From positions 64,001 through 128,000 of IMG/VR virus record IMGVR_UViG_3300027365_000009: a stretch of DNA of 64,000 nucleotides; one strand, given 5' to 3'. Position numbers and translations under genes: made by a program. Each line of letters begins with the position of its first letter. Within the stretch, counting starts at the first letter, position 1. Of the stretch, positions 1,010 to 37,403 are shown in pieces. The notes below the pieces were generated by a model. The model searched no databases and was not told the DNA's origin. It saw only the letters and a program-made list of their open reading frames with translations. The DNA comes from a virus.

Positions 1010-4000
1010 TTAGACTGCTGGTGCAATGGTACCTTCGTCGTTGACCCAATCCCCTGCGGCTTCGTCGTAGTAGACGCCGAGTTGATCGAGCAGGAAGGTT
1101 TCCAGGGCTACTGGGGTGACCGCTTTATCGACCACAGTGGTATTGGGTTGCATGTCAGCTGTCGCATCAGCAAAGCCCAGCGGTACCCAAGTCCCATCAC
1201 CTTTCCGCACATACGTCAGAGTCGGGTCGGTATCGGGCACCTCCTCCACTTCGGCAGTCAGGATTGCCCAGGCACCGTCAATACGAACGTATTGCTGTCC
1301 ATCGACAGGGGCTTCTTCCACCTCAGCGGTTTGGACTTCCCAGAGACCATTCTTACGCACGTAAGCCTGATTGTCCTCTGGAGCCTCTTCCACTTCAGCG
1401 GTCAGCACTGCCCATTCGGCATTCAGACGCACATACTGTTGGCCGTCTTGAGGGGCCTCGTAGACGGTACCGCCACCCAGGTAACCCATCGCGGACCAAG
1501 TGGTATCAGAGACCTTCTGGAACCACTGGTTAGTGACTGAGTTGATGGCGAAGTCGCCGATGTCCCCAGTCACGGCGTCGGGGTCGTAATCCCGGGCGAT
1601 CCAGCGGTTACCGTTGAGGCTATCCAGCCAGTCGATCTCAGTACCCACATAGTCAGGGTACTGTTCGAGATAGACTTCATATGCTGACGGACCCCGAATA
1701 TCGCCCATGTCGAGCCAGCTGCCCGCACTGGCTACCCACAGGAAGATGTGATCACCCACCTGGTAGGCTTCACCCTGGAAACTCCCCGCCGTAGGCAGGT
1801 CGGCTTGAGATGCCAATTCGCCTTCGATGATGATACCCAAGGCATCGGCGCCCTGTGGACCTTGGAGGCTATCTAACCACTCCTGCTCGGTCCCAGTGAA
1901 GCCCGCATCGACAGCCACTTGGTAAGCGGACTTACCCTGGAAACCGATCAGGCTATCCAACCACTCCTGACGAGTCCCGACGAAGCCTTCATTAACCGCC
2001 ACTTCATACGCGGAGTAACCGCGCGGACCGACGAGCGTGTCGAGCCATTCTGCCTTGGTTCCGGAGAACCCTTCGGCTACAGCAATGGCGTAGGCACTAT
2101 CGCCTTGGGCACCCTTGATCGACTCGAGCCACTCGGCTTCAGTGCCCACGAACCCACCAGCAACCGCGATGTCGTAGTTGCTGTCACCCTTGTCACCTTT
2201 GAGGGAATCCAGGAACTCCTGTTCGGTGCCCACAAAACCATTATCGAGGGCCACGGCGTAGGCATCACCCCCCTTCAGGGAGTCCAACCATTCGGTTTCA
2301 GTACCTGAGAAGCCCTGCTCAACAGCCACCTCATACGCGGAGGGACCTTCCAGCGACTCAAGCCATTCGGCTTCGGTACCTGTGAAGCCACCAGATACCG
2401 CAGCATCATAGGCTGACGGACCCGTATCGCCTTGGATACCCTGATCGCCCTGCGGGCCTTTCACAGTGCCCAGGTTCTTCCACTGGTCGTTGACCCAAGC
2501 GTACAGGTCCTCACCCACTAGATAACCTTCACCAACGGTACCGGAGGTGGGAAGCTCACCAGTGGTTGCGACACTGTCCACGATATTCAGGCTCGGACCG
2601 GGGTCGCCCATGTCACCCTGCGGACCTTGAGGGCCTTGGGGACCGACCAGCGACTCCAACCACTCACCGGCCGTACCAGTGAAGCCGTTGGCTACAGCCA
2701 CCTGGTAAGCATCATCACCTACCAGTGATGCCAACCATTCACTGCGGGTTCCGGTGAAGCCATCAGCCACTGCGACGTCGAAGGCATCCCCACCCTTGAG
2801 GGATTCGAGCCACTGACCCACACTGCCCGAGAAGCCGTTTTCCACCGCCTGCTCGTAGGCAGACGCGCCGACCAGGCTATCCAGCCACTCTTGTTGAGTA
2901 CCCACGAAGCCTTGATCCAGTGCTACCTGGAAGGCGCTATCCCCGGCCAGCGGACCAGCATTGACCCACTCACCTGCCAGACGCAGATACAGGTCAGACC
3001 CTGCCACGTAGGCTTCGCCGTCTGCACTGTCAGTCGGGAGGTCAGCTTCCGTCGCCACCACACCGGTGATGTTCAGGCCAGTGCCCATCGGACCCGCCGG
3101 ACCTTGCGGGCCGACCAGGGTATCGAGCCACTCTTGCTCGGTACCACTGAACCCCGTGGAGAGAGCCACTTCATAGGCGGACTTGCCAACCAGGGTCTGG
3201 AGCCACTGAGTCTCAGTACCATTGAATCCCTGGTCTTGAGCGTGTTCAAAGGCCGACTTACCGGTAGCGCCTTGGAGGCTGTCCAGGAACTCTTGCTCCG
3301 TTCCCACGAAACCGTTCTGCACCGCTACGGAATAGACGGAGTCGCCCTCGAGGGTACTCAGCCAGTCGCTTTCCGTGCCCTGGAAGCCATTGTTAACGGC
3401 AACGTGATAGGCGCTGTCACCATCATCACCCTTGGGACCCTGAACCCCCTGGATGCCTTGCTCGCCCTGAGGACCGACAACAGGACCCACGTCCAGCCAC
3501 TGGGAGTCGTCCCAGACGTAAAGGTTCTCACCAATGAAGTAGGCATCGCCCGGGGCGTTACCTGATGCCGGAAGGTCGCCCACAGCGGCGACTTTGCCCA
3601 GGACCTTGATGGCCGCAGACGGTTCACCCTTGGGACCTTGAACCCCTTGGATACCCTGATCCCCCTGAGGACCAACGAGGCTATCGAGCCATTCGGCGCG
3701 GGTGCCGGTATAGCCATCAGCCACGGCCACTTCGTAGGCATCGCCCCCTTTCAGGGAGTTAATAAAATCCTGTTCGGTACCCACGAATCCGGTGGAGAGG
3801 GCGACCTGATAGGCGCTATCACCAATCAGGCTGTCGAGCCACTCACTCACGCTGCCAGCAAAGCCATTAGCCAGGGCCAGTTGGTAGGCGCTGTCACCTT
3901 CCAGGTCTGCCAGCCACTTCTGGACGGTGCCTTCATAGCCCTGCTCCACGGCCAGGACATAGGCCGACTTACCGTCCGGACCGGTCTGACCGACAGGCTC

Positions 4001-6045: not shown

Positions 6046-6400
6046 GGAATGCTCTCCGATAGGCCCCATACGCTTCGACGGCACCAACCATTAAGGCACG
6101 CCGCCACCAGGTGACCCGCTGGGCTTTTAATGTTTGTCGGAAACGTAGATTGGCGACGCGCCAGCCTACGCCTTGTTTGAGTAGATAGTCATGTAGAATT
6201 GCCGCCGGTAAATACCGACACACGGGAGGAAACACGATCCACATCCAGCGTGGTGTGGTTGCGGCATCGGTTTCAAATCCCAAGGGGACTTGCGTGCCGT
6301 TAATTGACAAGGTCTCTTTTAACCGGTAGATAACCGGGTTCCACCACTTTTCAGGGAGGATGATATCGACCGGATAGGTTTGGCGTAGGGTTAAATCCAT
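6032..6400 (-). CDS. DUF1353-family protein
   Basis: VPLGFETDAATTPRWMW..FPP..YLPAAILHDYL motif typical of DUF1353. Confidence 0.8.
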   Translation of the reverse strand: MDLTLRQTYPVDIILPEKWWNPVIYRLKETLSINGTQVPLGFETDAATTPRWMWIVFPPVCRYLPAAILHDYLLKQGVGWRVANLRFRQTLKAQRVTWWRRALMVGAVEAYGAYRRAFHGDD

Positions 6401-6537
6401 TACCCCACCTCCATGCGATGAGGGCTCACGGCTTTTTGTTCGATAAAAAGCTCACGTGCTCCAGGTTAGTATGTTTGCGGATTACGTGCGTTCTGGATCA
6501 CAGGATTGGGTAACTTTACCCGGTAGACGACATAAAG

Positions 6538-6557
6538 GACCTCCCCATAGGGAGGTC
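6538..6557. terminator. CCTCCC/GGGAGG-family hairpin
   Basis: GACCTCCC-cata-GGGAGGTC, preceded by GACGACATAA. Confidence 0.55.
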
Positions 6558-7550: not shown

Positions 7551-7991
7551 TTACTCCTCATCTATGCGGTGGGATTCCATCCGCTTCATAAAATCACTAG
7601 AGGTCTCAGAAATCACGCCGATTTCCTCTTCCCCATCCACCAGTTCATGTTCCCCTAACTTCTCGGGATTGGCCTCGGGTACCGGTACGTGTTCCACACT
7701 TCCATCGGGATTGCGTTCAAACGGGTTGCGGTTCTGTTGCATCAGCACCATTTCCCGCATGGCCTCTGCCACTTCTTTGGAGCTATCCGCGTTACGTTCA
7801 TCAATGTTGTTCTTGCGATCATTGATGGCAGTGGTATCCATGTCCTTTAAGGCTTTCAGGACAATTTCAATGTCTTTCGGGTCATTGGGGATGGTCTCCT
7901 TGATGAAGTTATCCACCACCCGTTTGCGGATGTTTTGAGAATACGCTAACGTCTCCTCATATGACAGCCGGTCTTGGGCGTTATCGCTCAT
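7551..7991 (-). CDS. Conserved jumbo-phage hypothetical protein
   Basis: 146-aa ORF with AGGAG RBS; position in the phiKZ-like conserved block. Confidence 0.7.
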   Translation of the reverse strand: MSDNAQDRLSYEETLAYSQNIRKRVVDNFIKETIPNDPKDIEIVLKALKDMDTTAINDRKNNIDERNADSSKEVAEAMREMVLMQQNRNPFERNPDGSVEHVPVPEANPEKLGEHELVDGEEEIGVISETSSDFMKRMESHRIDEE

Positions 7992-8051
7992 CCTGTCTCT
8001 CCTACTACCTAAATTTACCCACCACGTTGATGGTGTGATGAGTAGACGACG

Positions 8052-8069
8052 TTTGACATCTATATCATT
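8052..8069 (+). promoter_or_regulatory. Putative phage early promoter (CTATATCAT variant)
   Basis: TTTGACATCTATATCATT; matches a motif repeated 6 times in the window. Confidence 0.55.
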
Positions 8070-8132
8070 GCCACGATGCCCCTAAGACTGGGCGTTTGCT
8101 CCACTAACCCATTCCCATAAGGAGCCACCACC

Positions 8133-14222: not shown

Positions 14223-14423
14223 TTAGGCGCCCAGGATCTTACCCAGACGGCTGGCCAGAAGTTCTTGGATATCACGGGTTTCTTGGGTCTCTCCATTGAT
14301 CTGGGTGGAAGTTTCCTCCCCACCCAGAACTTTCTGAAGAGCTCCCTCACCCAGGGCAACCGCGCCAGCCAGCACGGTTACGTTTTCTGCGTATGCCTTA
14401 TTCGGGCTTTGGGGCTTGGCCAT
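14223..14423 (-). CDS. Small hypothetical protein
   Basis: 66-aa ORF with GAGGAG RBS, overlapping the end of RNAP exon 3. Confidence 0.6.
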   Translation of the reverse strand: MAKPQSPNKAYAENVTVLAGAVALGEGALQKVLGGEETSTQINGETQETRDIQELLASRLGKILGA

Positions 14424-14634
14424 CTTTCTCTCCTCGATAAACCGCCGCTACATGTTGGGATAGGCTCCGGAGAAGCCGGTTGGTGGTCCCCATCAGTTTG
14501 GGTGACAATACCATCCGGTCTTCGATACTGGTGTTACCGAATATGGCGTCCAGGGGCTGACCTGATTCAGTACGGTTCTCACCTGACATGACACGAGACA
14601 CCACAGTCTTCATCTGGTTGGCAAAGACGAATTT
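14398..14634 (-). CDS. rpoB: Virion RNA polymerase beta-like subunit (gp178-like), exon 3
   Basis: Begins AAA TTC GTC TTT GCC AAC CAG ATG AAG (KFVFANQMK) right after the intron omega-G at 14635; restores the GDK motif. Confidence 0.88.
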   Translation of the reverse strand, partial: KFVFANQMKTVVSRVMSGENRTESGQPLDAIFGNTSIEDRMVLSPKLMGTTNRLLRSLSQHVAAVYRGEKDGQAPKPE

Positions 14635-15012
14635 CTACTGCTTTCATATGGCATCGTTACTACCATACCGTCCCGTCGTTGTATATCCAACGATGGACTG
14701 CTCCAGGCTTTCCCTGGACGTAAAGACTATATCTTCTCCTTCAGCATGACCTGGTCAGGAGGCTCCCATTTCGAGGTCACTTGACCCCTACACCGTGGTA
14801 AACGGTTAGTCGTTGAACGTTCCCCGTGGGGTCCTTTAGGACCCGGTAGGGGCTTCGCTGCTGATTGCCCAATCCTTCTACTTGTCAAGCCGTCAACACC
14901 TGCTTTCGCGGTGCTTGTGGCAAGAAGGCTCTAAGGGGTTCCCAGCAATTAGAGAGCATTCACTTAACCCTTTCGGATTAAGCGGACTGTGTTACTGCAC
15001 TCGGCAGTCACA
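14635..15012 (-). ncRNA. Group I intron (IA-type, ORF-less, 378 nt) in the beta-like gene at GD|K
   Basis: P AAUUGCUGGGAA, Q AAUCAGCAG, R UCAACGACUA, S GAAGAUAUAGUC; P1 GAU|UGUG..CACAGUC with U.G at the splice site; P7.1/P7.2; terminal G. Confidence 0.92.
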
Positions 15013-15933
15013 ATCACCAACCCCCGCAGGGATGTCGTGGTCAATGTACACCTGAATGGCCAGGGTATCCGGATCAAGCGCATTACCTTCCACACGGAAA
15101 CTGGTATCGACTTCCCCGGTAAAGGGAGGTTGACCCAATTGTTTCGCACGCTTCTTGCGTTGCTTGTCCGACCATCCCGCCAGTTCTTGGAGGGATTCTG
15201 AGAGGTCCTCAAATTCCCCGTGGTAGAAACACTCCACACGACTGACCGTACCGACCACCTTCGCTCGGGGTGTCATCGCTGACAGACGCCGTAACGTATC
15301 GAGTGCGGCGTCGTCAAATAACGGATTCTCGGCAGTCTCCGGATCTTCAATCGTACATAAGATTGTCTCGAGGTCAACGTGATCACCCTCTTTAACGAGA
15401 CCTGAGACACTTTGGTCGAACTTCACCTGAATAGTTCGTACCTCCGTGGTCTGGGTGGTCATCTTTTTGGCCATGGCCTCAGAGATCACCGAGCCATCTT
15501 CCAGCGTGTCAATGTTGTCGATCAATGCAGTACGACAAAGGGCTCCCGGCTTTAACGTCACCTGACCAGGATTGAACACATCGGGGGTGAAGTACTTTCG
15601 GTTATAGGCAATGACATCGCCTTGGTTAACCTTATCCCCTTTCTTGAAGTCAGTGACGACCTCGTGCGGGTAAGTTACCCCGGCCGCTTTACCGTAGCGC
15701 TTCCCCAACTCGACCTTCTTGACACTTCCATCTGTATACGTCACGGTAATGGCGGTCTTGGTAACATCAGTGACCTTACCATCGGCCTCCGCCGTGGCCG
15801 CAAACAGATCCGTCATTCGGTGCGGAATGACCTGTTCATAGCCTGTCCGGAGTGGAATCGGCTCATACCCATCAGCATACACACTCTGTTGATTCTGGAT
15901 AGCGACAAAATTTATTCTTTTTGCATCGTCATG
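15013..15933 (-). CDS. rpoB: Virion RNA polymerase beta-like subunit, exon 2
   Basis: HDDAKRINFVAIQ (cf. bacterial beta HDDANRALM), LEDGSVISE, ends AGVGD; 921 nt in frame. Confidence 0.9.
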
Positions 15934-17994
15934 CAACTATGTTCAGTTACACCGCTACGTGTAACCCGCGATCCGATTGCTGTGAGGCAACCGAACGCTG
16001 CTCTAGGTCTCCCTAGAAGTTCAGACCATATCTTCTTCCCTTTTAAGGAAGCCTCCCATTTCGGAATCGCTTGATTCCTACTCCCCTGCCGGGGATGGTC
16101 GTTGAACGTTCCCCGTAGGCGCTCTAGGAGCGCCCGTAGGGGCTTCGCTGCTAAAGGGGGTCTTAGACCCCACGGTTGTCCATTGCTGCTCTTGGAGAGC
16201 TTTATCCGTCCCGTTGTTAGACCGTCGACGTCTGCTTTCGCGACGCCTGTGGTGGGACAGCTTTAGGAGTTCCCAGCAATTAGAGAGGTTATCATTCTGA
16301 AATTTCTTTCAGAAGGGACCATGTCGAGTTCATTCCCAATCTTCTTTTGAAGACAGTTTACGAACCTGCGTACCTTTACTATGCACTTCCTTACAGCTCT
16401 GACGCAACCAACTGAACATGGTAGATTTACCCACCCCTATCGCCGTGGCTGCTTCAGTTATACTTCCATAACAGGACACCACTCCTGTAGTAACATCTCT
16501 AACTTCGACGGGTTCTTTATTATTAGGCGCTTCGAGAATTTCTTCTTCGGAAACGTCGCGCCATGGAGACGCATCACTCTTTTTCTTTATTAAAAACCGA
16601 CAATCCCATAACGGCTGTCCGGCAGCTGCAATACGTCGAGTCATTTGTGGTTTAGAAATACCAAGGGCGTGTGCGGCGTCTTTCTGCCTCTCGTATTCCT
16701 TTACTTCGCCACTTACAACGTCTTTAACAAGAACCTTATTGCTGCGACCATAGAGTTGAAGTTCTCGTTCGGGATCGTCTACTTTTCTCCACGGCGTTGG
16801 GTCGTTCTTAAATTTCATTAAAACACCAGGTGGTATGAGGGGCTGATTTTTTCTCTTTAGCCAATAAACCACCGTATTACCCGATACGCCAAATGCTTCA
16901 CCACACTTGTGCATACTCTCATAGGTGGTTATTTCGCCTGTATACACATTCTTAACATCGACCCGACGTTCCCACTTTTCAAAAAGAGGTTCTGTGGCTA
17001 AATCCACATCACGCCACGGGGTTAAATCCGATTTGAATTTAACTTGTATATTACCGACGAAGACGGGCTGGTTAGGGCGTTTAAGATAATCATTAATGAC
17101 CCAAATATCCACCCCTAACTCTTTAGCGCATTGAAGTTTTGAATTATATTCCCTTACGATATTTTCATCCAAATACCGCACCAGAACAGGTTGGGGGGCA
17201 TTAGTAGTATTCTCTCTAATTTTACCTCTATCGCGCGTTGTATTCCACGCATGGATATGATTTTCACTCACTGTTGTCCATTCGAGGTTATCCAACCCGT
17301 CGTTGCCTGGAATACCATCAATATGGTTAACGTGTAATTGTTTATAGTTATTGGGGTAATTCGAATACGCCAACATCATTGCGCGATGCCGACCTAGGTT
17401 TGTCCTTCGATTGTCACTATCGCGTTTTATTTGATAGATAACGTAACCACTATCCATGACTGAATAGGGTGCAACTTCCCCACTCAGTACATGTATCACC
17501 ACACCTTCCCGATTTATTGCATATTGGGTATAATCGGGAATATAAGCGTAGCCTGGCCGAAGGAATGGCTCAAGTCCATTCGGTATTTTAAAATGTAAAT
17601 TATTAGGGTGGTGATTGGTGAGATCACCATCGTCGAAGCCCACCTCAATGAGATGCCAGAATTCTACTGGTATCCATATTGAGTTAAAAGTGAATGCGAT
17701 AAGTCTCGCCACTTTATGGGGTTTGATGTTACCTAGCCAACTGACTTTAGTCCAACGCAAGCCATCTCGGTCAGGGTATGTGTTAATAACCCGTTCCTTC
17801 TTACCTGTGACTTCGCCAAGTCGACTAACAAACAATGTTGCGGTGCTGTAAGGTACTGGCAGTAAGGCATTATCGTCGTAAAACATAGGGCATCCGTTGG
17901 TTGACTGAGATATGCTCATAAAGTTACTTAGGTGAGTGAAAACACACCGAAACTAAATTTCATACTCGTCCAACGGATGGTAACTCAAACGTTA
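15934..17994 (-). mobile_element. Mobile group I intron (2061 nt) with homing endonuclease ORF in the L1 loop
   Basis: Starts UAA after exon ...GCGGAU; IGS UCGACAUGGUCC after the ORF pairs with the exon 1 end (P1, U.G) and exon 2 CAUGACGA (P10); P/Q/R/S core at ~16020-16290 with P7 GACCA/UGGUC; omega-G at 15934. Confidence 0.92.
16330..17919 (-). CDS. Intron-encoded HNH homing endonuclease with C-terminal NUMOD1/IENR1-like repeats
   Basis: HRAMMLAY...HVNHIDGIPGNDGLDNLEWTTVSENHIHA; four VxVxxxxxGxxxxYxSxxxxAxxxG repeats; AT-rich relative to flanks; alternative start at 17886. Confidence 0.88.
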   Translation of the reverse strand: MSISQSTNGCPMFYDDNALLPVPYSTATLFVSRLGEVTGKKERVINTYPDRDGLRWTKVSWLGNIKPHKVARLIAFTFNSIWIPVEFWHLIEVGFDDGDLTNHHPNNLHFKIPNGLEPFLRPGYAYIPDYTQYAINREGVVIHVLSGEVAPYSVMDSGYVIYQIKRDSDNRRTNLGRHRAMMLAYSNYPNNYKQLHVNHIDGIPGNDGLDNLEWTTVSENHIHAWNTTRDRGKIRENTTNAPQPVLVRYLDENIVREYNSKLQCAKELGVDIWVINDYLKRPNQPVFVGNIQVKFKSDLTPWRDVDLATEPLFEKWERRVDVKNVYTGEITTYESMHKCGEAFGVSGNTVVYWLKRKNQPLIPPGVLMKFKNDPTPWRKVDDPERELQLYGRSNKVLVKDVVSGEVKEYERQKDAAHALGISKPQMTRRIAAAGQPLWDCRFLIKKKSDASPWRDVSEEEILEAPNNKEPVEVRDVTTGVVSCYGSITEAATAIGVGKSTMFSWLRQSCKEVHSKGTQVRKLSSKEDWE

Positions 17995-20900
17995 ATCCGC
18001 ACAGGGTGCCGCTAAGGTACTGGAAGAGAGCAGTTTGGTGGGCCCATCTTCCTTTGGATCAAACCGCCGTGTTTGCCCCCGGAGGTTGGTGAAGTTGGCA
18101 TCCGGTGAGAGATACGCCACCACCCCCACGTCTCCCGAATCAACGGTGGACTCACTGACGACCCCCAGATCCGACTTGTGGTATTTCCGGGTACGTTCCA
18201 CCATCGATTTGCCACCACGACCACCATCACCTCGGTAAGACATGACCTCCTGCTCACGCATATTGGCAAAGGGGTTGGTGTCCTCTACTAGCGAGACCGA
18301 TGGATCTTGCACGATCTTCTGCCAGACAGCATGTGGGTTGAGTTCAACCGCATGATCGCCCATTCCGGCTTTGGCATTAAATGTTTTCGCCGCCCGTGCA
18401 AGTTCACCATACACCATTCCAGCGAAGCGCTCATAGCCGCGATAGCGCATGTACGCACCGTCTACTTCTTCCGGTGAGAAGTCCGTTTGTAGGAGTTCCA
18501 CACCACGTAGGAGCAAGGGACCAAATTCGGTGGGCTCGCCCATCTCTTCCAATAGACCACGGGTGATGGGATCGACCCAGGCTTGGAACAGGGCATCGAT
18601 TTCACGAAGATACCGTACGCCAAGCCCCGCGTCCTCTAGAATGCGATAATAGACGTCTTGACGGTCAAAGTCCCACACGCTGAATTGTTTCAAGGACTGA
18701 TGATACCGATTGAAGCCCGCCATCACCATCATGGCTTTCTTGTCCAGTCGTGAGAACACCAGCGTCTCGTCCTGGAAAACGATACGGTATTCATCTGACG
18801 TATACGGGATATGCTCGCCACGTTTAAAGCGGCTCACCGATGCCCCTACCATCTTAATGAGTTCCGCCAGGCCGAACCGGTAGGCCAACACCACCCCGAC
18901 TGGCAAACTTTTGTTTGCCACGGTCATATCCACCACTTCTAGCGGGGCTTTTCCCAAATCCAATCCCAAGACATCATGAATCGTGCCTGCAACCTCAGTA
19001 CCTTCCTCTGTCACGACGTAAAACACATCGTTATGGTCCACTAAAAGGGGCACATTCCGGTAACGTCCCACGACCACCAGGTCATCGGTCTCGTGGTCAC
19101 TGACGTCAAACCCGGCGGTCTCTTTGAAATGCTTCTCTCGGGAATGATAATCCAAGTAGAAATGGTAATCCCCACTTTTAAATGCACTCATTCGACTGGC
19201 GAGGATCGAATACACTCGGGGGAGGTCCAGGCTTTTATCGAACACATTGGATAGTCTGACATCCCCAATATGATCGTTATCCTGGTCCAGTCCCTGTTCG
19301 GTGATCTGCGCCGTCAACCACTTCGCGTAATTATTGGTCACGCGTTCACTGCGATCCAAGAACGTCTTGTTATAGTACGACGTTAACGCCACACGGTGGG
19401 GATGAACCTTCCGTAAAGGAACGTCAACCCGTTGAAGTCTTAGTCGATTTGACACCCCGTTAGAGATGAACCGTCCATCGTCATCCACCACAGGCAGGCG
19501 AAAACGAACCGTTGACTGACGTCCTCTCACGGGCTTCAGCGTCACCGTATGGACTTCGTAGTGGTTCATGGTGTCTTGAACGGTTTCGACACTATAATCT
19601 TTAACGGCAATCCCCTGTTGCTGAATCGCCAAAACGGATGACACCACATCCTTGTGCATGACATTACGCAGATACTGTTGGTTCATTACCTTCAGTTTGG
19701 AATGTAGCATGGACTTATCGGGGATGGTGTCTCGATCGGGGAACGCCGGAATGTCCGGTAGGGCGAGATCCTCCTGAGATACCTCCAGAAGCGTTTCTAG
19801 GGACTGCCCTGACCCGTAGGGGTCTTTGAGCTTCTTGTACGTCTCAGCGTCCTGTATGGCCCTCTGATAGGCTTTCCCTGACATCAGCCCGATATCGTGC
19901 AATTCCCACGCTTTCTTGGCGATCGGCTGGGTCAGGCGTTCTTCCGTTCCTACCGGCTCAACCTCAATGGGATCGTCCTGGTCAGCAACGTTGGGGAGAC
20001 TAACCTCACTGTTATCGGGACCGTCGGATTCGCGTCCATCAAACGCCGGTTGGGGAACCAACGGATCACTGACCGGTTCGGGCAGTACCAGGTCGTCATC
20101 AAGCCCGTTAAGAAGACTTAAACCGAACGACTCGTCGGGAGTCGATGCCTGGGCCGTTGATGTCTCGGTATCATCCGTTTGGGATGCTGGGGTATCTGAC
20201 GATGGAGTCGATGATGTGGTAGGCGCTGCCTTGGTCTGGGCGGGGCCTTCGTTTCGATCGAGTTGGGTGACACCACCGACCAGGTCGCGTAGTCCATGGA
20301 GTAGACGGAGGAAATACCTCTGTAATGTACTTGCGCTAAGGCCAGAGTCCTGGTCATCATCTTTCTCCTTCCGCCACTCGTTGAGTTTCCCCAAATTAAT
20401 GACAAAGAAGTAGCCCTTTACCTTAATCAGGTAATTGACATGGTCGATGGCGTCGTCAGACAGGACACTTAACGATGACAACTCCCGATCATCCGAAAGC
20501 CACAACCACAGGTCCAGAATGTTGAGTTCGGCAGGCCCTGAAAAAGCCGCCAGTGACTTCTGGGTGATGGTCCGTTCAATCCGTTTGAAGTCCTCAAACG
20601 TCGGAATGCGATCCGGGAGATGGAGGTCCACAAACTGGTGACGTTTAAACCGCCGATGGGTGGCTTCCACGTTATCCCAGAAGGTCCGAGCCACGTTCTT
20701 CCACCGGAAGTATTCCGCCTTATAGGAAGGGATATACCGATAGAGGTGAGAGAGCAGTGCGTAATTCACCACCAGCAGGTTCTTGGGGTTAATGGTGAGG
20801 GCCTGGTCTTTCCGCAGTGGCTTGAACAGACGGTTCTTACGCCGGTATTCGTTCTCCATCATCCGGGCATTGAACACGGTCCTACGTGGACCACCTTCGA

Positions 20901-21135
20901 GATGCCGTAACTCATGGAGGTGTTCGATGAAAATCCGACCTCCTACGTCAGAAAAGATCGGGTCTTGAGGGTTGGGACCATAGCTCACCGTGTCGTCCGG
21001 CCAGAAATGGTACACGCTTTCCAGCGGGAAGGTGAGTTGGTTAATTGGCGTCAGGTGGGGCTTCATCAGTTGGTTACGGTGACGTACCCCAACCTGACGA
21101 TAATACTGTGGATATTTTAACCGCATGGGACTCAT
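17995..21135 (-). CDS. rpoB: Virion RNA polymerase beta-like subunit (gp178-like), exon 1; spliced product ~1432 aa
   Basis: GDGGRGGKSMVERTRKYHKSDLGVVSESTVDSGDVGVVAYL (beta region D-like); 1047+307+78 aa join in frame. Confidence 0.9.
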
Positions 21136-21146
21136 CCCTATTGATG

Positions 21147-21333
21147 TTAGGCAAATGTCTCGACGGGATCGCCGGTCATGAAGCGCAAGGCAAGTTTGAT
21201 GGTGTGGATATCCACACTGAAAGCTAGCCCACCACCTGCGTCGAGGTACGCCTTACGTGTGTTAAAATGTTTTTCCGCTTCTTCATTAGCTTCTTTCGAA
21301 TAAGTCGCCAAATAGGAAATGGTATCGCCGTCA
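21147..21333 (-). CDS. rpoC: Virion RNA polymerase beta'-like subunit (gp180-like), exon 2; absent from the ORF track
   Basis: T GAC GGC GAT ACC ATT...GCC TAA; completes GGDF-DGDTISYLATYSKEANEEAEKHF. Confidence 0.88.
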
Positions 21334-21783
21334 CGTTATGTCCACTTGAGGCGCTACCCTCAAGCCGGTGTGCTAAGACACCCGCCCACCGTCACCGGTG
21401 GGGCCAGACCATATCTCCACCCGCCGACGATGACGTCGGGTAGGGTGCCTCCCGTTTCCCCGCCGCTTGGCAGGTACTCTACTCGCTTCTCCCCGTGGGG
21501 TGCTTTCGATGGTCGTTGAACTCATCCCTTAGTGTATCAGCACCTTAGAGACTTCGCTGCGTCGGTTGTGTCTACCATTGACGTTTTTACCATGCCCACC
21601 ACTTCCATTACTGGGGTGGGTATTACACTCAGTTTCCTGGTGTAAGTGGTAGTCAATGACGTAACGACAGTTTCCCGCAATTAGAGAGGTTTTACTAAAG
21701 GTGCTTTCACACCTTGGGACTCTGATCAAATAGCATATTTTTCAATGTCATTTAGATGAGAAAAAATCTACACTATTTTACTA
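21334..21783 (-). ncRNA. Group I intron (ORF-less, 450 nt) inside the Phe codon of the DFDGD catalytic motif
   Basis: P1 GGGACUU/GAGUCCC with U.G; P AAUUGCGGGAAA, R UCAACGACCA, S GAGAUAUGGUC; omega-G at 21334. Confidence 0.92.
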
Positions 21784-23243
21784 AAGTCCCCACCCAATTG
21801 CCCGAGCGTAATGGGACTGACTGACAATGAATCATGGTATTGAGGATCACCACCAAGCCTTGGGTATTCCAACGCCAAGGGAAGCGAATTATCTCGTTCA
21901 AACTCATGATTCAATGGGTAGCGAAGTTCACCCACCACGGTGGTCTTTACGTAGCTTTTTACCGGAATCGAAGAATACATGCCTGTCACGGGATAGCGTG
22001 TAATAAACGCATGGTTTTTGTACCACATCGAAAGGCCAGTGAGGTATATCAGTTCCACGTACGTGATGGGCCTCACCCACTGGGTGTCCCACCCCTCAGG
22101 GACTTCGTCGATACTCCGGAGGATACGATAGTTCTGTTCATCGTCTACATACACCAGCGCCAGGTAATGGCCTGCCACTTCCACATAACGGTGACGCTTG
22201 TCCACGACTTCTAAGTCGTTGATGACTTTCTCCAACCCTTCGTCTGTACTCCAACGATCCATGTCTTCGTTAGAGACCTCCACCCACACCCGCTGATAGG
22301 TCTTCGGGTCCACCAGCTCGACATTATTCGAGGTACTGGCAAAAATCTCTCCCACCAGGGAGGTTTTCAGGTGATAGATCGTCTTGGGAAGTACTGCCTT
22401 GGCAGCCTGATAGAGACCGACTTGGCAGTCGTTAAACCGTGGTCGATTCGGAGCGTCAAGATCGGGCACCGACGTGTCCATGGAGGAGATCACATTTCGG
22501 GTACCATTAAATACCCGTCGTGACGCCCAACGCCCCTGAATAAAACCTTTCTTACCAGAAATCAGATTTTCAATGTATTCATAGATCGCCTGTAGACGTA
22601 GAGTCAATACGAAACGCGTTCGATCGTACAGAGGGAGATCGCTTTTACCAATCTGGTCTGGAAGGTTACGGACGAGCATAAGCACGTTTTGGTACAGCTC
22701 ATTGATCTCATCCATGCTGACGCGGTTATCGCTGTCGATATCAGCGTCCCGGAGTCCCGCCGGCATTACCAACAAGTGTTTCAGGGTGGCCTGTTGACGA
22801 TACCGATTGATCAGCTCGACACGCATGTCCCGACTGGACGAACCTGTTTTCTTAGGGGACAGCTCCTCCCAGTGTGTCATGAAGAAAGCATACCCCGTCG
22901 CGCCATCCAGTTCAGTGGCGGCTTCAAAATCTTTTTCTTCGGGATTCCATTTGGCGTATTCTTGTCCTGAGAGAATTCCTTTATAAAGACTTTTGAGTTT
23001 GATCAGTCGAGAGTACATGACGGGATGCAGGACAGCAATCTTTAGTGGGATGTACCCAAAGCGACGATCCCGGTCGGGGTCACCCACCCGACCAAACGTG
23101 ACGGTGGAGAAGAGCCCATCATCATGGAAATTTCCACCCGGACCATCAAAGATGTCCAAACTGGTAATCGGACGAAGGCGTTGTAGCTGTTGTGGGGTGG
23201 GTGAGAGTAGGGATAAATTAAAAGGTACACTAACTGATTTCAT
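21784..23243 (-). CDS. rpoC: Virion RNA polymerase beta'-like subunit (gp180-like), exon 1; spliced product ~548 aa
   Basis: FHDDGLFSTVTFG, RFGYI, LLVMPAGLRD, GKKGFIQGRWASRRVFNGTRNVIS, TRYPV, ends LGGD-TT. Confidence 0.9.
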
Positions 23244-36736: not shown

Positions 36737-36984
36737 ACCCCGACCTGTATTTACTACAACAGAACTCTAAGGGATTCTGGCAACACCCACGGACCGAGCG
36801 GGTCTATCAAGTGCTCACGGTCGCCAACAAACACAGCACCCGACCTGACGAGTTTCCGATAACTGTGGTTTATCAAGATATCGTTGATGAACGTATCTGG
36901 TCCCTTCCCATCAAGTGTTTTGTCGATAAGTTCGACCCTTGGCAACCACATACCCCCGAGACCGCTCCAGGAGGCCGTCAGTGA
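36733..36984 (+). CDS. DUF1653-like small protein
   Basis: WQH..YQVLTVAN..TVVYQ...IWSLP...FVDKF pattern. Confidence 0.55.
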   Translation: MNPDLYLLQQNSKGFWQHPRTERVYQVLTVANKHSTRPDEFPITVVYQDIVDERIWSLPIKCFVDKFDPWQPHTPETAPGGRQ

Positions 36985-37403
36985 GCTTTTCACCCACTCC
37001 CTGTGACAAGCACCCGGGGTTTTATGAAATACCCGGATATCGCCGCTACGGAGCAAATAGAAAGGGGGAGATCCTCTTTAAGGATACGGGTCATGTGACT
37101 GCTGGTGGAAATGCCGGTCGTTACCTTAAGGTTGCGGTTTTCCGAGACGGAGATAGTGAGAGAACGCTACAGTATGTCCACGATCTCATCTGTCGGGCGT
37201 TTCGTGGGAAACCCAAACCTGGTCAGGTTGTATTGCATGCCGATGATGATCGCCGCAATAATCGCCCAAGTAACCTGGCATGGGGGACGCAGTCCTCTAA
37301 CATTAAGGCGACCTATGATAATGGTTTGAGAAAGCCCACCACCGGACCACGCCCGAGTAAGGAAGAGTATCGCCACTCTCCTTTCGTGCGACCTTGTCTA
37401 TAA
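36981..37403 (+). CDS. Free-standing HNH endonuclease (NUMOD4-like N-terminus)
   Basis: IPGYRRYGANRKGEI...YVHDLICRAF...VLHADDDRRNNRPSNLAWGTQSSN; GGAGG RBS before GTG. Confidence 0.82.
   Translation: MSFSPTPCDKHPGFYEIPGYRRYGANRKGEILFKDTGHVTAGGNAGRYLKVAVFRDGDSERTLQYVHDLICRAFRGKPKPGQVVLHADDDRRNNRPSNLAWGTQSSNIKATYDNGLRKPTTGPRPSKEEYRHSPFVRPCL

Follow-up and report, generated by a model that had tools for sequence, protein, structure and literature searches.

Two adjacent RNA polymerase (RNAP) genes in one stretch of viral DNA lie broken into five open reading frames (ORFs), and the locus raises the question of what the interruptions are and what they do to the genes that carry them. The stretch analysed, referred to below as the window, is 64,000 nucleotides (nt) long and comprises bases 64001-128000 of the 149,876-bp IMG/VR virus contig IMGVR_UViG_3300027365_000009, which is about half complete and comes from an uncultured phiKZ-like (chimallivirus) jumbo phage. 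We propose, with a probability of about 0.87, that the interruptions are three genuine self-splicing group I introns, which sit at catalytic motifs of two adjacent virion RNAP genes and are selfish elements at homing hot spots.

Three group I introns interrupt two RNAP genes

Group I introns were called with cmscan against Rfam 15, using the curated gathering score of 50 bits for family RF00028 (Intron_gpI). The 64-kb window contains exactly three Rfam matches above threshold, all of them to RF00028, on the minus strand and in gaps between gene pieces: intron 1 at 21754-21385 (66.9 bits, E 8.8e-15), intron 2 at 16348-16001 (59.0 bits, E 2e-12) and intron 3 at 15029-14703 (61.1 bits, E 4.9e-13). 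An earlier inspection of the DNA letters by themselves, called here the sequence-only reading, had proposed group I introns at these three places, bounded by 21783-21334, 17994-15934 and 15012-14635, and the boundaries came out the same on direct reading. Each intron is preceded by an exon-final U and has a terminal G, the last intron base being G at 21334 in intron 1 and at 15934 in intron 2.

The junction strings predicted by the same reading, GACTT|TGACGGC, GCGGAT|CATGAC and GGTGAT|AAATTC (a vertical bar marks a splice junction throughout), are correct in the DNA. When the exons are joined, the reading frame is kept and proteins of 548 and 1432 amino acids (aa) result. Aligned with phiKZ gp178 and with Noxifer gp196 and gp195, which are uninterrupted, these proteins show no gap at any junction, and the joined exon DNA is in register with the intron-less relatives L009-L012 (L numbers denote loci and contigs used for comparison). 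Instead of five fragments, the region should be annotated as two spliced genes, which encode 548 and 1432 aa and have the following parts.

21784..23243, minus strand: beta' N-terminal exon 1 (gp180 orthologue), identified by phrog_2986 and tblastn; ends ...GGG GAC TT
21334..21783, minus strand: intron 1, group I, 450 nt, without an ORF; RF00028, 66.9 bits
21147..21333, minus strand: beta' N-terminal exon 2, 62 codons plus stop; starts T GAC GGC GAT and aligns gap-free to Noxifer gp196 residues 489-548
17995..21135, minus strand: beta exon 1 (gp178 orthologue), 1047 codons, identified by phrog_3148 and tblastn; ends GCG GAT
15934..17994, minus strand: intron 2, group I, 2061 nt, with an endonuclease ORF; RF00028, 59.0 bits
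16330..17919, minus strand: putative HNH/NUMOD homing endonuclease P0003, 529 aa, identified by phrog_59, Pfam, 1U3E and phage homologues
15013..15933, minus strand: beta exon 2, 307 codons (HDDAKR...GVGD); phrog_3148 positions 1048-1354
14635..15012, minus strand: intron 3, group I, 378 nt, without an ORF; RF00028, 61.1 bits
14398..14634, minus strand: beta exon 3, 78 codons plus stop; starts AAA TTC and corresponds to phrog_3148 positions 1362-1423 and phiKZ gp178 residues 1377-1450

The conserved core segments are all intact in the three introns. A consensus fold of 14 related cores (RNAalifold) contains 41 pairs, 25 of which show compensatory changes on both sides, and it includes two extra covarying hairpins between P7 and P3' (alignment columns 272-303 and 307-331); these we take, from general classification knowledge, to be P7.1/P7.2, which would place the introns in subgroup IA (phage IA2-like). 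P7 itself is GACCA/UGGUC in introns 1 and 2 and GACUA/UAGUC in intron 3. This covariation, pointed out in the sequence-only reading, was confirmed as a two-sided change among the 14 cores, where the fourth P7 pair is U-A in 12 (intron 3 and 11 others) and C-G in 2 (introns 1 and 2).

The U.G P1 helices described in that reading could likewise be seen in all three introns, with the exon-final U facing a G of the guide sequence immediately 5' of P2. The guide sequences are GAGUCCC in intron 1, GGUCC (16320-16316) in intron 2 and CACAGUC in intron 3. In intron 1, P1 is formed by GGGACUU/GAGUCCC, with U.G at the splice site and a duplex energy of -13.4 kcal/mol, while the corresponding duplex of intron 3, GAU|UGUG.../...CACAGUC, has -11.8 kcal/mol. 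The ribozyme core of intron 2 occupies its last ~400 nt, and because the guide sequence sits immediately 5' of P2, the P1 loop contains the endonuclease gene, an arrangement shared with the introns that carry phiKZ gp179 and PhiPA3 gp210.

The interrupted genes are orthologues of virion RNAP subunits

In a PHROGs profile search, the five ORFs on the minus strand between 14398 and 23243 were recognised as pieces of two RNAP genes. A 491-aa frame matches phrog_2986 (E 1.9e-190), and the 1424 positions of phrog_3148 are matched in succession by a 1047-aa frame (positions 2-1046, E 0), a 314-aa frame (1048-1354) and a 71-aa frame (1362-1423), with the 529-aa HNH endonuclease ORF lying between the first two beta pieces. 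Pfam had no match in the polymerase exons, and PHROGs and orthology were used in its place; megablast of the whole region against GenBank phages gave no match either, relatives being reached only by protein or sensitive DNA search.

Using tblastn, all six of the phiKZ proteins gp181, gp180, gp178, gp177.1, gp177 and gp176 were found in the window, with the phiKZ order kept. The beta' N-terminal gene is 53% identical to phiKZ gp180 over 490 aa, beta exon 1 is about 46% identical to phiKZ gp178 and to its Noxifer counterpart, and beta exon 2 is 58% identical to phiKZ gp178 residues 1070-1376; overall, the window exons are 44-58% identical to phiKZ gp178 and gp180, all in frame. Judged by these matches in phiKZ gene order, the two genes are orthologues of the virion RNAP subunits gp180 (beta' N-terminal part) and gp178 (beta), in agreement with the identity assigned in the sequence-only reading. 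The phiKZ record labels gp178 and gp180 as structural head proteins, and these labels, together with PMC10612078, suggest that both subunits would be packaged in the virion.

Each intron lies at a catalytic motif

Intron 1 divides DF|DGD in the beta' N-terminal subunit, with two bases of the Phe codon on its 5' side, whereas introns 2 and 3 interrupt beta, at AD|HDD and GD|K, respectively. That all three positions are catalytic, as had been proposed from the letters, holds on two kinds of evidence. The DFDGD Mg motif can be read directly from the window sequence, while HDD and GDK were placed with a profile of the phage beta C-terminal region (12 sequences) that matches Thermus RpoB (E 2e-13) and aligns phage HDD with EHDDANR and phage GDK with VGDKLANRHGNKG; a phmmer search of PDB with a single Noxifer segment returned noise only. 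We take the lysine of GDK to be the initiating-nucleotide lysine K1065 of E. coli. The second Asp of HDD has been equated with E. coli D675 by Birkholz et al. (PMC11620839).

Inteins were considered as an explanation for the interruptions and rejected, because there are in-frame stops at or within seven codons of each junction and ribozyme cores inside the insertions.

Under the reading we favour, guanosine would attack after the U of the P1 U.G pair in the pre-mRNA, and the exons would then be ligated after the terminal G of the intron. Excision would restore DFDGD, HDD and GDK and so give full-length subunits of 548 and 1432 aa. Intron 2 would be a complete mobile element, whose I-HmuI-like endonuclease would drive homing, presumably by introducing a nick near AD|HDD into the intron-less alleles of relatives that infect the same cell, and introns 1 and 3 would be ORF-less relatives from the same intron family. 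All three would be selfish elements at homing hot spots, that is, at the most conserved, and therefore catalytic, sequences, and not a dedicated control device.

Several observations weigh against self-splicing, mobile introns. Exon/guide pairing is short, amounting to 3 bp in intron 3 and 4 bp in intron 2. In intron 2, moreover, a local helix, GCGGAU/AUCCGU (17995-17950, ~30 nt downstream), which has a U-A pair at the splice site and -9.8 kcal/mol, competes with the weaker long-range P1, whose guide is 1.7 kb away and whose duplex has -5.9 kcal/mol; this local helix may be a holding structure until the core is transcribed. The HNH_3 match of P0003, at 22.4 bits, falls slightly below the Pfam cut-off of 24.8. 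In long-read transcriptomics of phiKZ, no spliced reads came from the homologous introns in the conditions of that study (PMC10914365), and splicing in the window phage, which is uncultured and known here from its DNA alone, is predicted.

The short P1 pairing of introns 2 and 3 would also fit insertions that no longer splice, in which case the genes would be pseudogenes or extra split subunits, and jumbo-phage polymerase subunits are indeed already split into several polypeptides (PMC7598289). We regard this explanation as most improbable. The core segments are intact and all three introns exceed the Rfam threshold, and the exons have stayed in frame at the above level of identity to phiKZ gp178 and gp180. 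In addition, the downstream exons start in the middle of motifs and have no start codon where they begin, and an unspliced beta' product would be without the DGD of the Mg site.

Intron 2 carries a homing endonuclease gene

As the sequence-only reading had it, only one of the introns retains an endonuclease: the ORF is confined to intron 2, and the small ORFs of introns 1 and 3 match no Pfam family. P0003 matches the HNH endonuclease profile phrog_59 (E 6.6e-32) and, in Pfam, NUMOD1 (37.9 bits, cut-off 22.8) and I-HmuI_NUMOD-like (33.4 bits, cut-off 27). The H-N-H residues are visible (HVNHIDG...NLEW...NH), as are four NUMOD-type repeats, and the protein resembles I-HmuI (1U3E, E 0.006). It is homologous to phiKZ gp179 (E 1e-36) and PhiPA3 gp210 (E 4e-31, about 29% identity). 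The GC content of its gene is 41-45%, compared with 50-58% in the exons.

This homology bears on a further proposal, compatible with the reading we favour, namely that the endonuclease of intron 2 acts as a weapon, cutting the polymerase gene of intron-less co-infecting relatives and lowering their yield, so that the intron benefits its carrier. Interference competition of this kind has been shown for gp210 (Birkholz et al. 2024, PMC11620839), to which P0003 is homologous as it is to gp179, and 9 nt separate the site of intron 2 from that of the gp210 intron, both lying in one conserved segment. On the other hand, the effect between PhiPA3 and phiKZ requires entry of the nuclease into the rival's nucleus-like compartment, which did not occur naturally (PMC11620839), and two of the three introns in the window have no nuclease. 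On balance, we hold such a role to be possible but doubtful. The intron-less allele of L009 reads CCGAT|CACGATGAT around the intron 2 site, and the RNAP intron sites of phiKZ-like phages are candidate targets for intron-endonuclease competition as shown for PhiPA3 against phiKZ.

Some further features of the window touch on these endonucleases. Residues 1-125 of P0003 (17919-17545, minus strand) form an extra N-terminal region with a weak likeness to a degenerate second HNH domain (phrog_17657, E 2.5e-4). A free-standing ORF of 154 aa at 36939-37403 (plus strand) contains a segment like the HNH protein gp179 of phiKZ (tblastn 37011-37328, E 2e-8), with no adjoining ribozyme. The first ~70 nt of intron 1 (21783-21715, minus strand) are AT-rich and form a long P1 loop (39% GC in the bin 21600-21799, against 49-58% in its neighbours); this part may be the remnant of a lost endonuclease gene.

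Intron occupancy varies among relatives

Relatives were surveyed as 58 IMG/VR loci, the best 120 beta protein clusters and 78 metagenomic 'exon 2' protein clusters. Their junctions were placed by an automatic finder constrained by the U/G rule, as an unconstrained version misplaced several junctions, including that of intron 2. Across the 58 loci and 120 protein clusters, intron occupancy differs site by site. L009, the nearest relative with flanking DNA (78% identity), has none of the three introns. The insertions seen in the two genes of the 58 loci lie at DFDGD, at residue 595 and at several places within the HDD region. Of the best 120 beta clusters, 67 have no interruption; a further 33 end within the HDD region, 16 begin at site 595 and 2 end at GD. 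Rfam-supported introns were found at the same sites in L028, L051, L054, L059, L066, L067 and L071. Because occupancy varies among close relatives, down to the absence of all three introns from L009, the pattern suggests selfish elements rather than a conserved control device.

It is here that the claim of the sequence-only reading that three splicing events gate the packaged RNAP divides. In the trivial sense that splicing is needed for full subunits it stands, but a control role does not fit introns that vary among relatives. The fuller form of this idea, in which the phage uses three splicing steps to time or limit production of the packaged polymerase, appeals to the need for all three excisions to obtain active enzyme and to phage T4, where the splicing of introns is tied to translation and to the state of growth (Sandegren and Sjoberg 2007, as cited in PMC10914365). 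Conditional splicing is also conceivable because phiKZ introns yielded no spliced long reads in one study. However, a control device would be expected to be kept, whereas these introns are not conserved, and no sensor element was seen in them. We therefore consider a regulatory gate very unlikely.

The sequence-only reading had further called three introns in adjacent genes striking, an impression that the survey does not bear out. Two Rfam-supported introns each are present in L028, L051, L054 and L066, the last of which (IMGVR_UViG_3300020599_000004) has a third insertion besides. A distant relative, the 10.4-kb contig L071 (ENA ERZ22679314 k127_63435115), has four Rfam-supported introns in the same two genes (842-1259, 3339-3771, 6209-6553 and 7714-8076, at the sites DFDGD, 595, HDD region and GD|K). 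L071 and L066 thus share the two host genes with the window but differ from it in their combinations of sites and in their intron cores, and neither uses AD|HDD. Since related phages carry two to four such introns in these genes, multi-intron virion RNAP genes are a known phenomenon, of which the window is a well-documented and not an unusual example.

The individual sites differ in how widely they are used. An intron at GD|K occurs in none of the 58 IMG/VR loci and in none of 60 sampled GenBank rows (281 records, 281 single places). Its standing as a new site is nevertheless ruled out by metagenomic sequences: in 12 of the 78 'exon 2' clusters the protein ends precisely at ...GD, Rfam-supported introns lie precisely at GGUGAU| in contigs L067 and L071, and contig L069 has an HNH gene there. 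A stop at ...APCAD, by contrast, was seen among the best 120 beta clusters only in the window's own protein. AD|HDD is therefore the one position found nowhere else among the sequences examined, and it may be new. Neither GD|K nor AD|HDD was found in the published accounts searched.

A frequent insertion in beta, of about 1.5 kb, follows QRAD| at Noxifer residue 595, begins GAU|UAA and has AGATATAGTC near its 3' end (L010:7026-8572, L013:6553-8100 and L066:7559-8144; also in L025 and L034). The insertions in L010, L013 and L066 score below the Rfam group I threshold, and the element is probably a divergent, ORF-containing group I intron. With this site included, introns occur at no fewer than six places in the virion RNAP genes of phiKZ-like phages (DFDGD, 595, AD|HDD, HDD|, KR/I and GD|K).

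Comparison with known phage introns

Multi-intron phage genes with IA2 introns are familiar from T4 td/nrdB/sunY, SPO1 with I-HmuI and Twort orf142, which has three introns. The introns of the window resemble those of T4, SPO1 and Twort in having IA-type cores with P7.1/P7.2-like hairpins and in lying at conserved catalytic insertion sites. They differ in their host genes, and the likeness to SPO1 extends to a nickase-like endonuclease of the I-HmuI type. This IA2 comparison set was taken partly from PMC12908238. In T4, translation influences splicing, unlike what would be expected for the window phage, as transcription in phiKZ-like phages is thought to take place inside the phage nucleus, away from ribosomes (PMC12908238).

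Within the same genes, the intron in phiKZ gene 180, which carries gp179 and scores 92 bits in Rfam, interrupts the same DFDGD motif as intron 1. It has been predicted since the 2002 genome paper, as that paper is cited in PMC10914365 and PMC11512511, and the annotation of phiKZ gp180 stops at ...GAD, exactly where exon 1 of the window stops. The phiKZ intron, however, includes an HNH gene that intron 1 does not have, and its insertion point after GAU (D|F) lies 2 nt upstream of the point, after TT (DF|), at which intron 1 is inserted. Nor are the two cores close relatives; the cores nearest to that of intron 1 come from L054 and L011, where the introns occupy the KR/I site of beta.

The PhiPA3 gp210 intron in gp211/209 (PMC11620839) shares with intron 2 the beta gene, the conserved HDD segment and the layout, in which the ORF comes after the 5' splice site and before the guide sequence. 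It follows the second Asp (HDD|), whereas intron 2 is 9 nt upstream (AD|HDD), and its core is closest not to that of intron 2 but to that of intron 3 at GD|K (77% over 260 nt). The gp210 protein nicks the intron-less gp178 allele (PMC11620839). At the same HDD| position, 201phi2-1 (L016) has an ORF-less group I intron of 336 nt in gp273/274, again in the beta gene, for whose splicing there is evidence from proteomics and from two long reads (PMC11512511); in contrast to the window, it is the single intron of its gene.

Introns of this family tend to follow GAU

At 17 of the 22 inferred junctions the exon ends in GAU, and most introns of this family follow that triplet, a detail that may be new. 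The longer string GCGGAU|UAA recurs at three unrelated sites, namely phiKZ gp180, site 595 and intron 2 of the window. By eye, GAU also precedes the DNA polymerase intron of the same contig. That intron lies outside the window in L005 (G000:C1:12371-15746), at about L005:1450-1878 on the minus strand, and scores 48.8 bits, slightly below the Rfam threshold; it splits a DNA polymerase gene (phrog_3011, with exons covering profile positions 3-496 and 497-571), and its 5' exon ends GGAU.

The cores of some introns are most similar to those of other introns in the same genome. The core of intron 2 is closest to that of the DNA polymerase intron of the same phage (72% over 340 nt). For the GD|K intron of L071, the closest core is that of the DFDGD intron on the same contig (78% over 260 nt and 96% over a further 53 nt). 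For intron 2 and L071, core similarity follows genome and not site; intron 3, as noted, is closest to the HDD intron of PhiPA3. A tentative explanation, which we hold to be less likely than not, is that one IA-type family may have colonised at least six RNAP positions and the DNA polymerase gene by moving within genomes to (G)GAU sites that fit a short guide GUC(C), with reverse splicing as one possible route for such spread. If this were true, endonuclease homing to a fixed site would not be the sole means of spread, and catalytic Asp codons would be intron magnets through RNA pairing as well as through protein recognition. The same observations could also result from conserved Asp codons coupled with co-conversion of exons in homing. 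Together, the GAU rule and the likeness of cores within a genome offer a lead, open to testing, on the way in which group I introns come to occupy new sites.

A further group I intron on the contig, also outside the window, lies in L004 (G000:C1:44667-47866) at about L004:1470-1790, with a score of 51 bits, and is followed by about 900 nt without ORFs. By eye, it interrupts an apparent tRNA-Leu(UAA) gene; ARAGORN called no tRNA in L004, as expected because the gene is interrupted. The intron is placed between U34 and A35, as in cyanobacteria and plastids.

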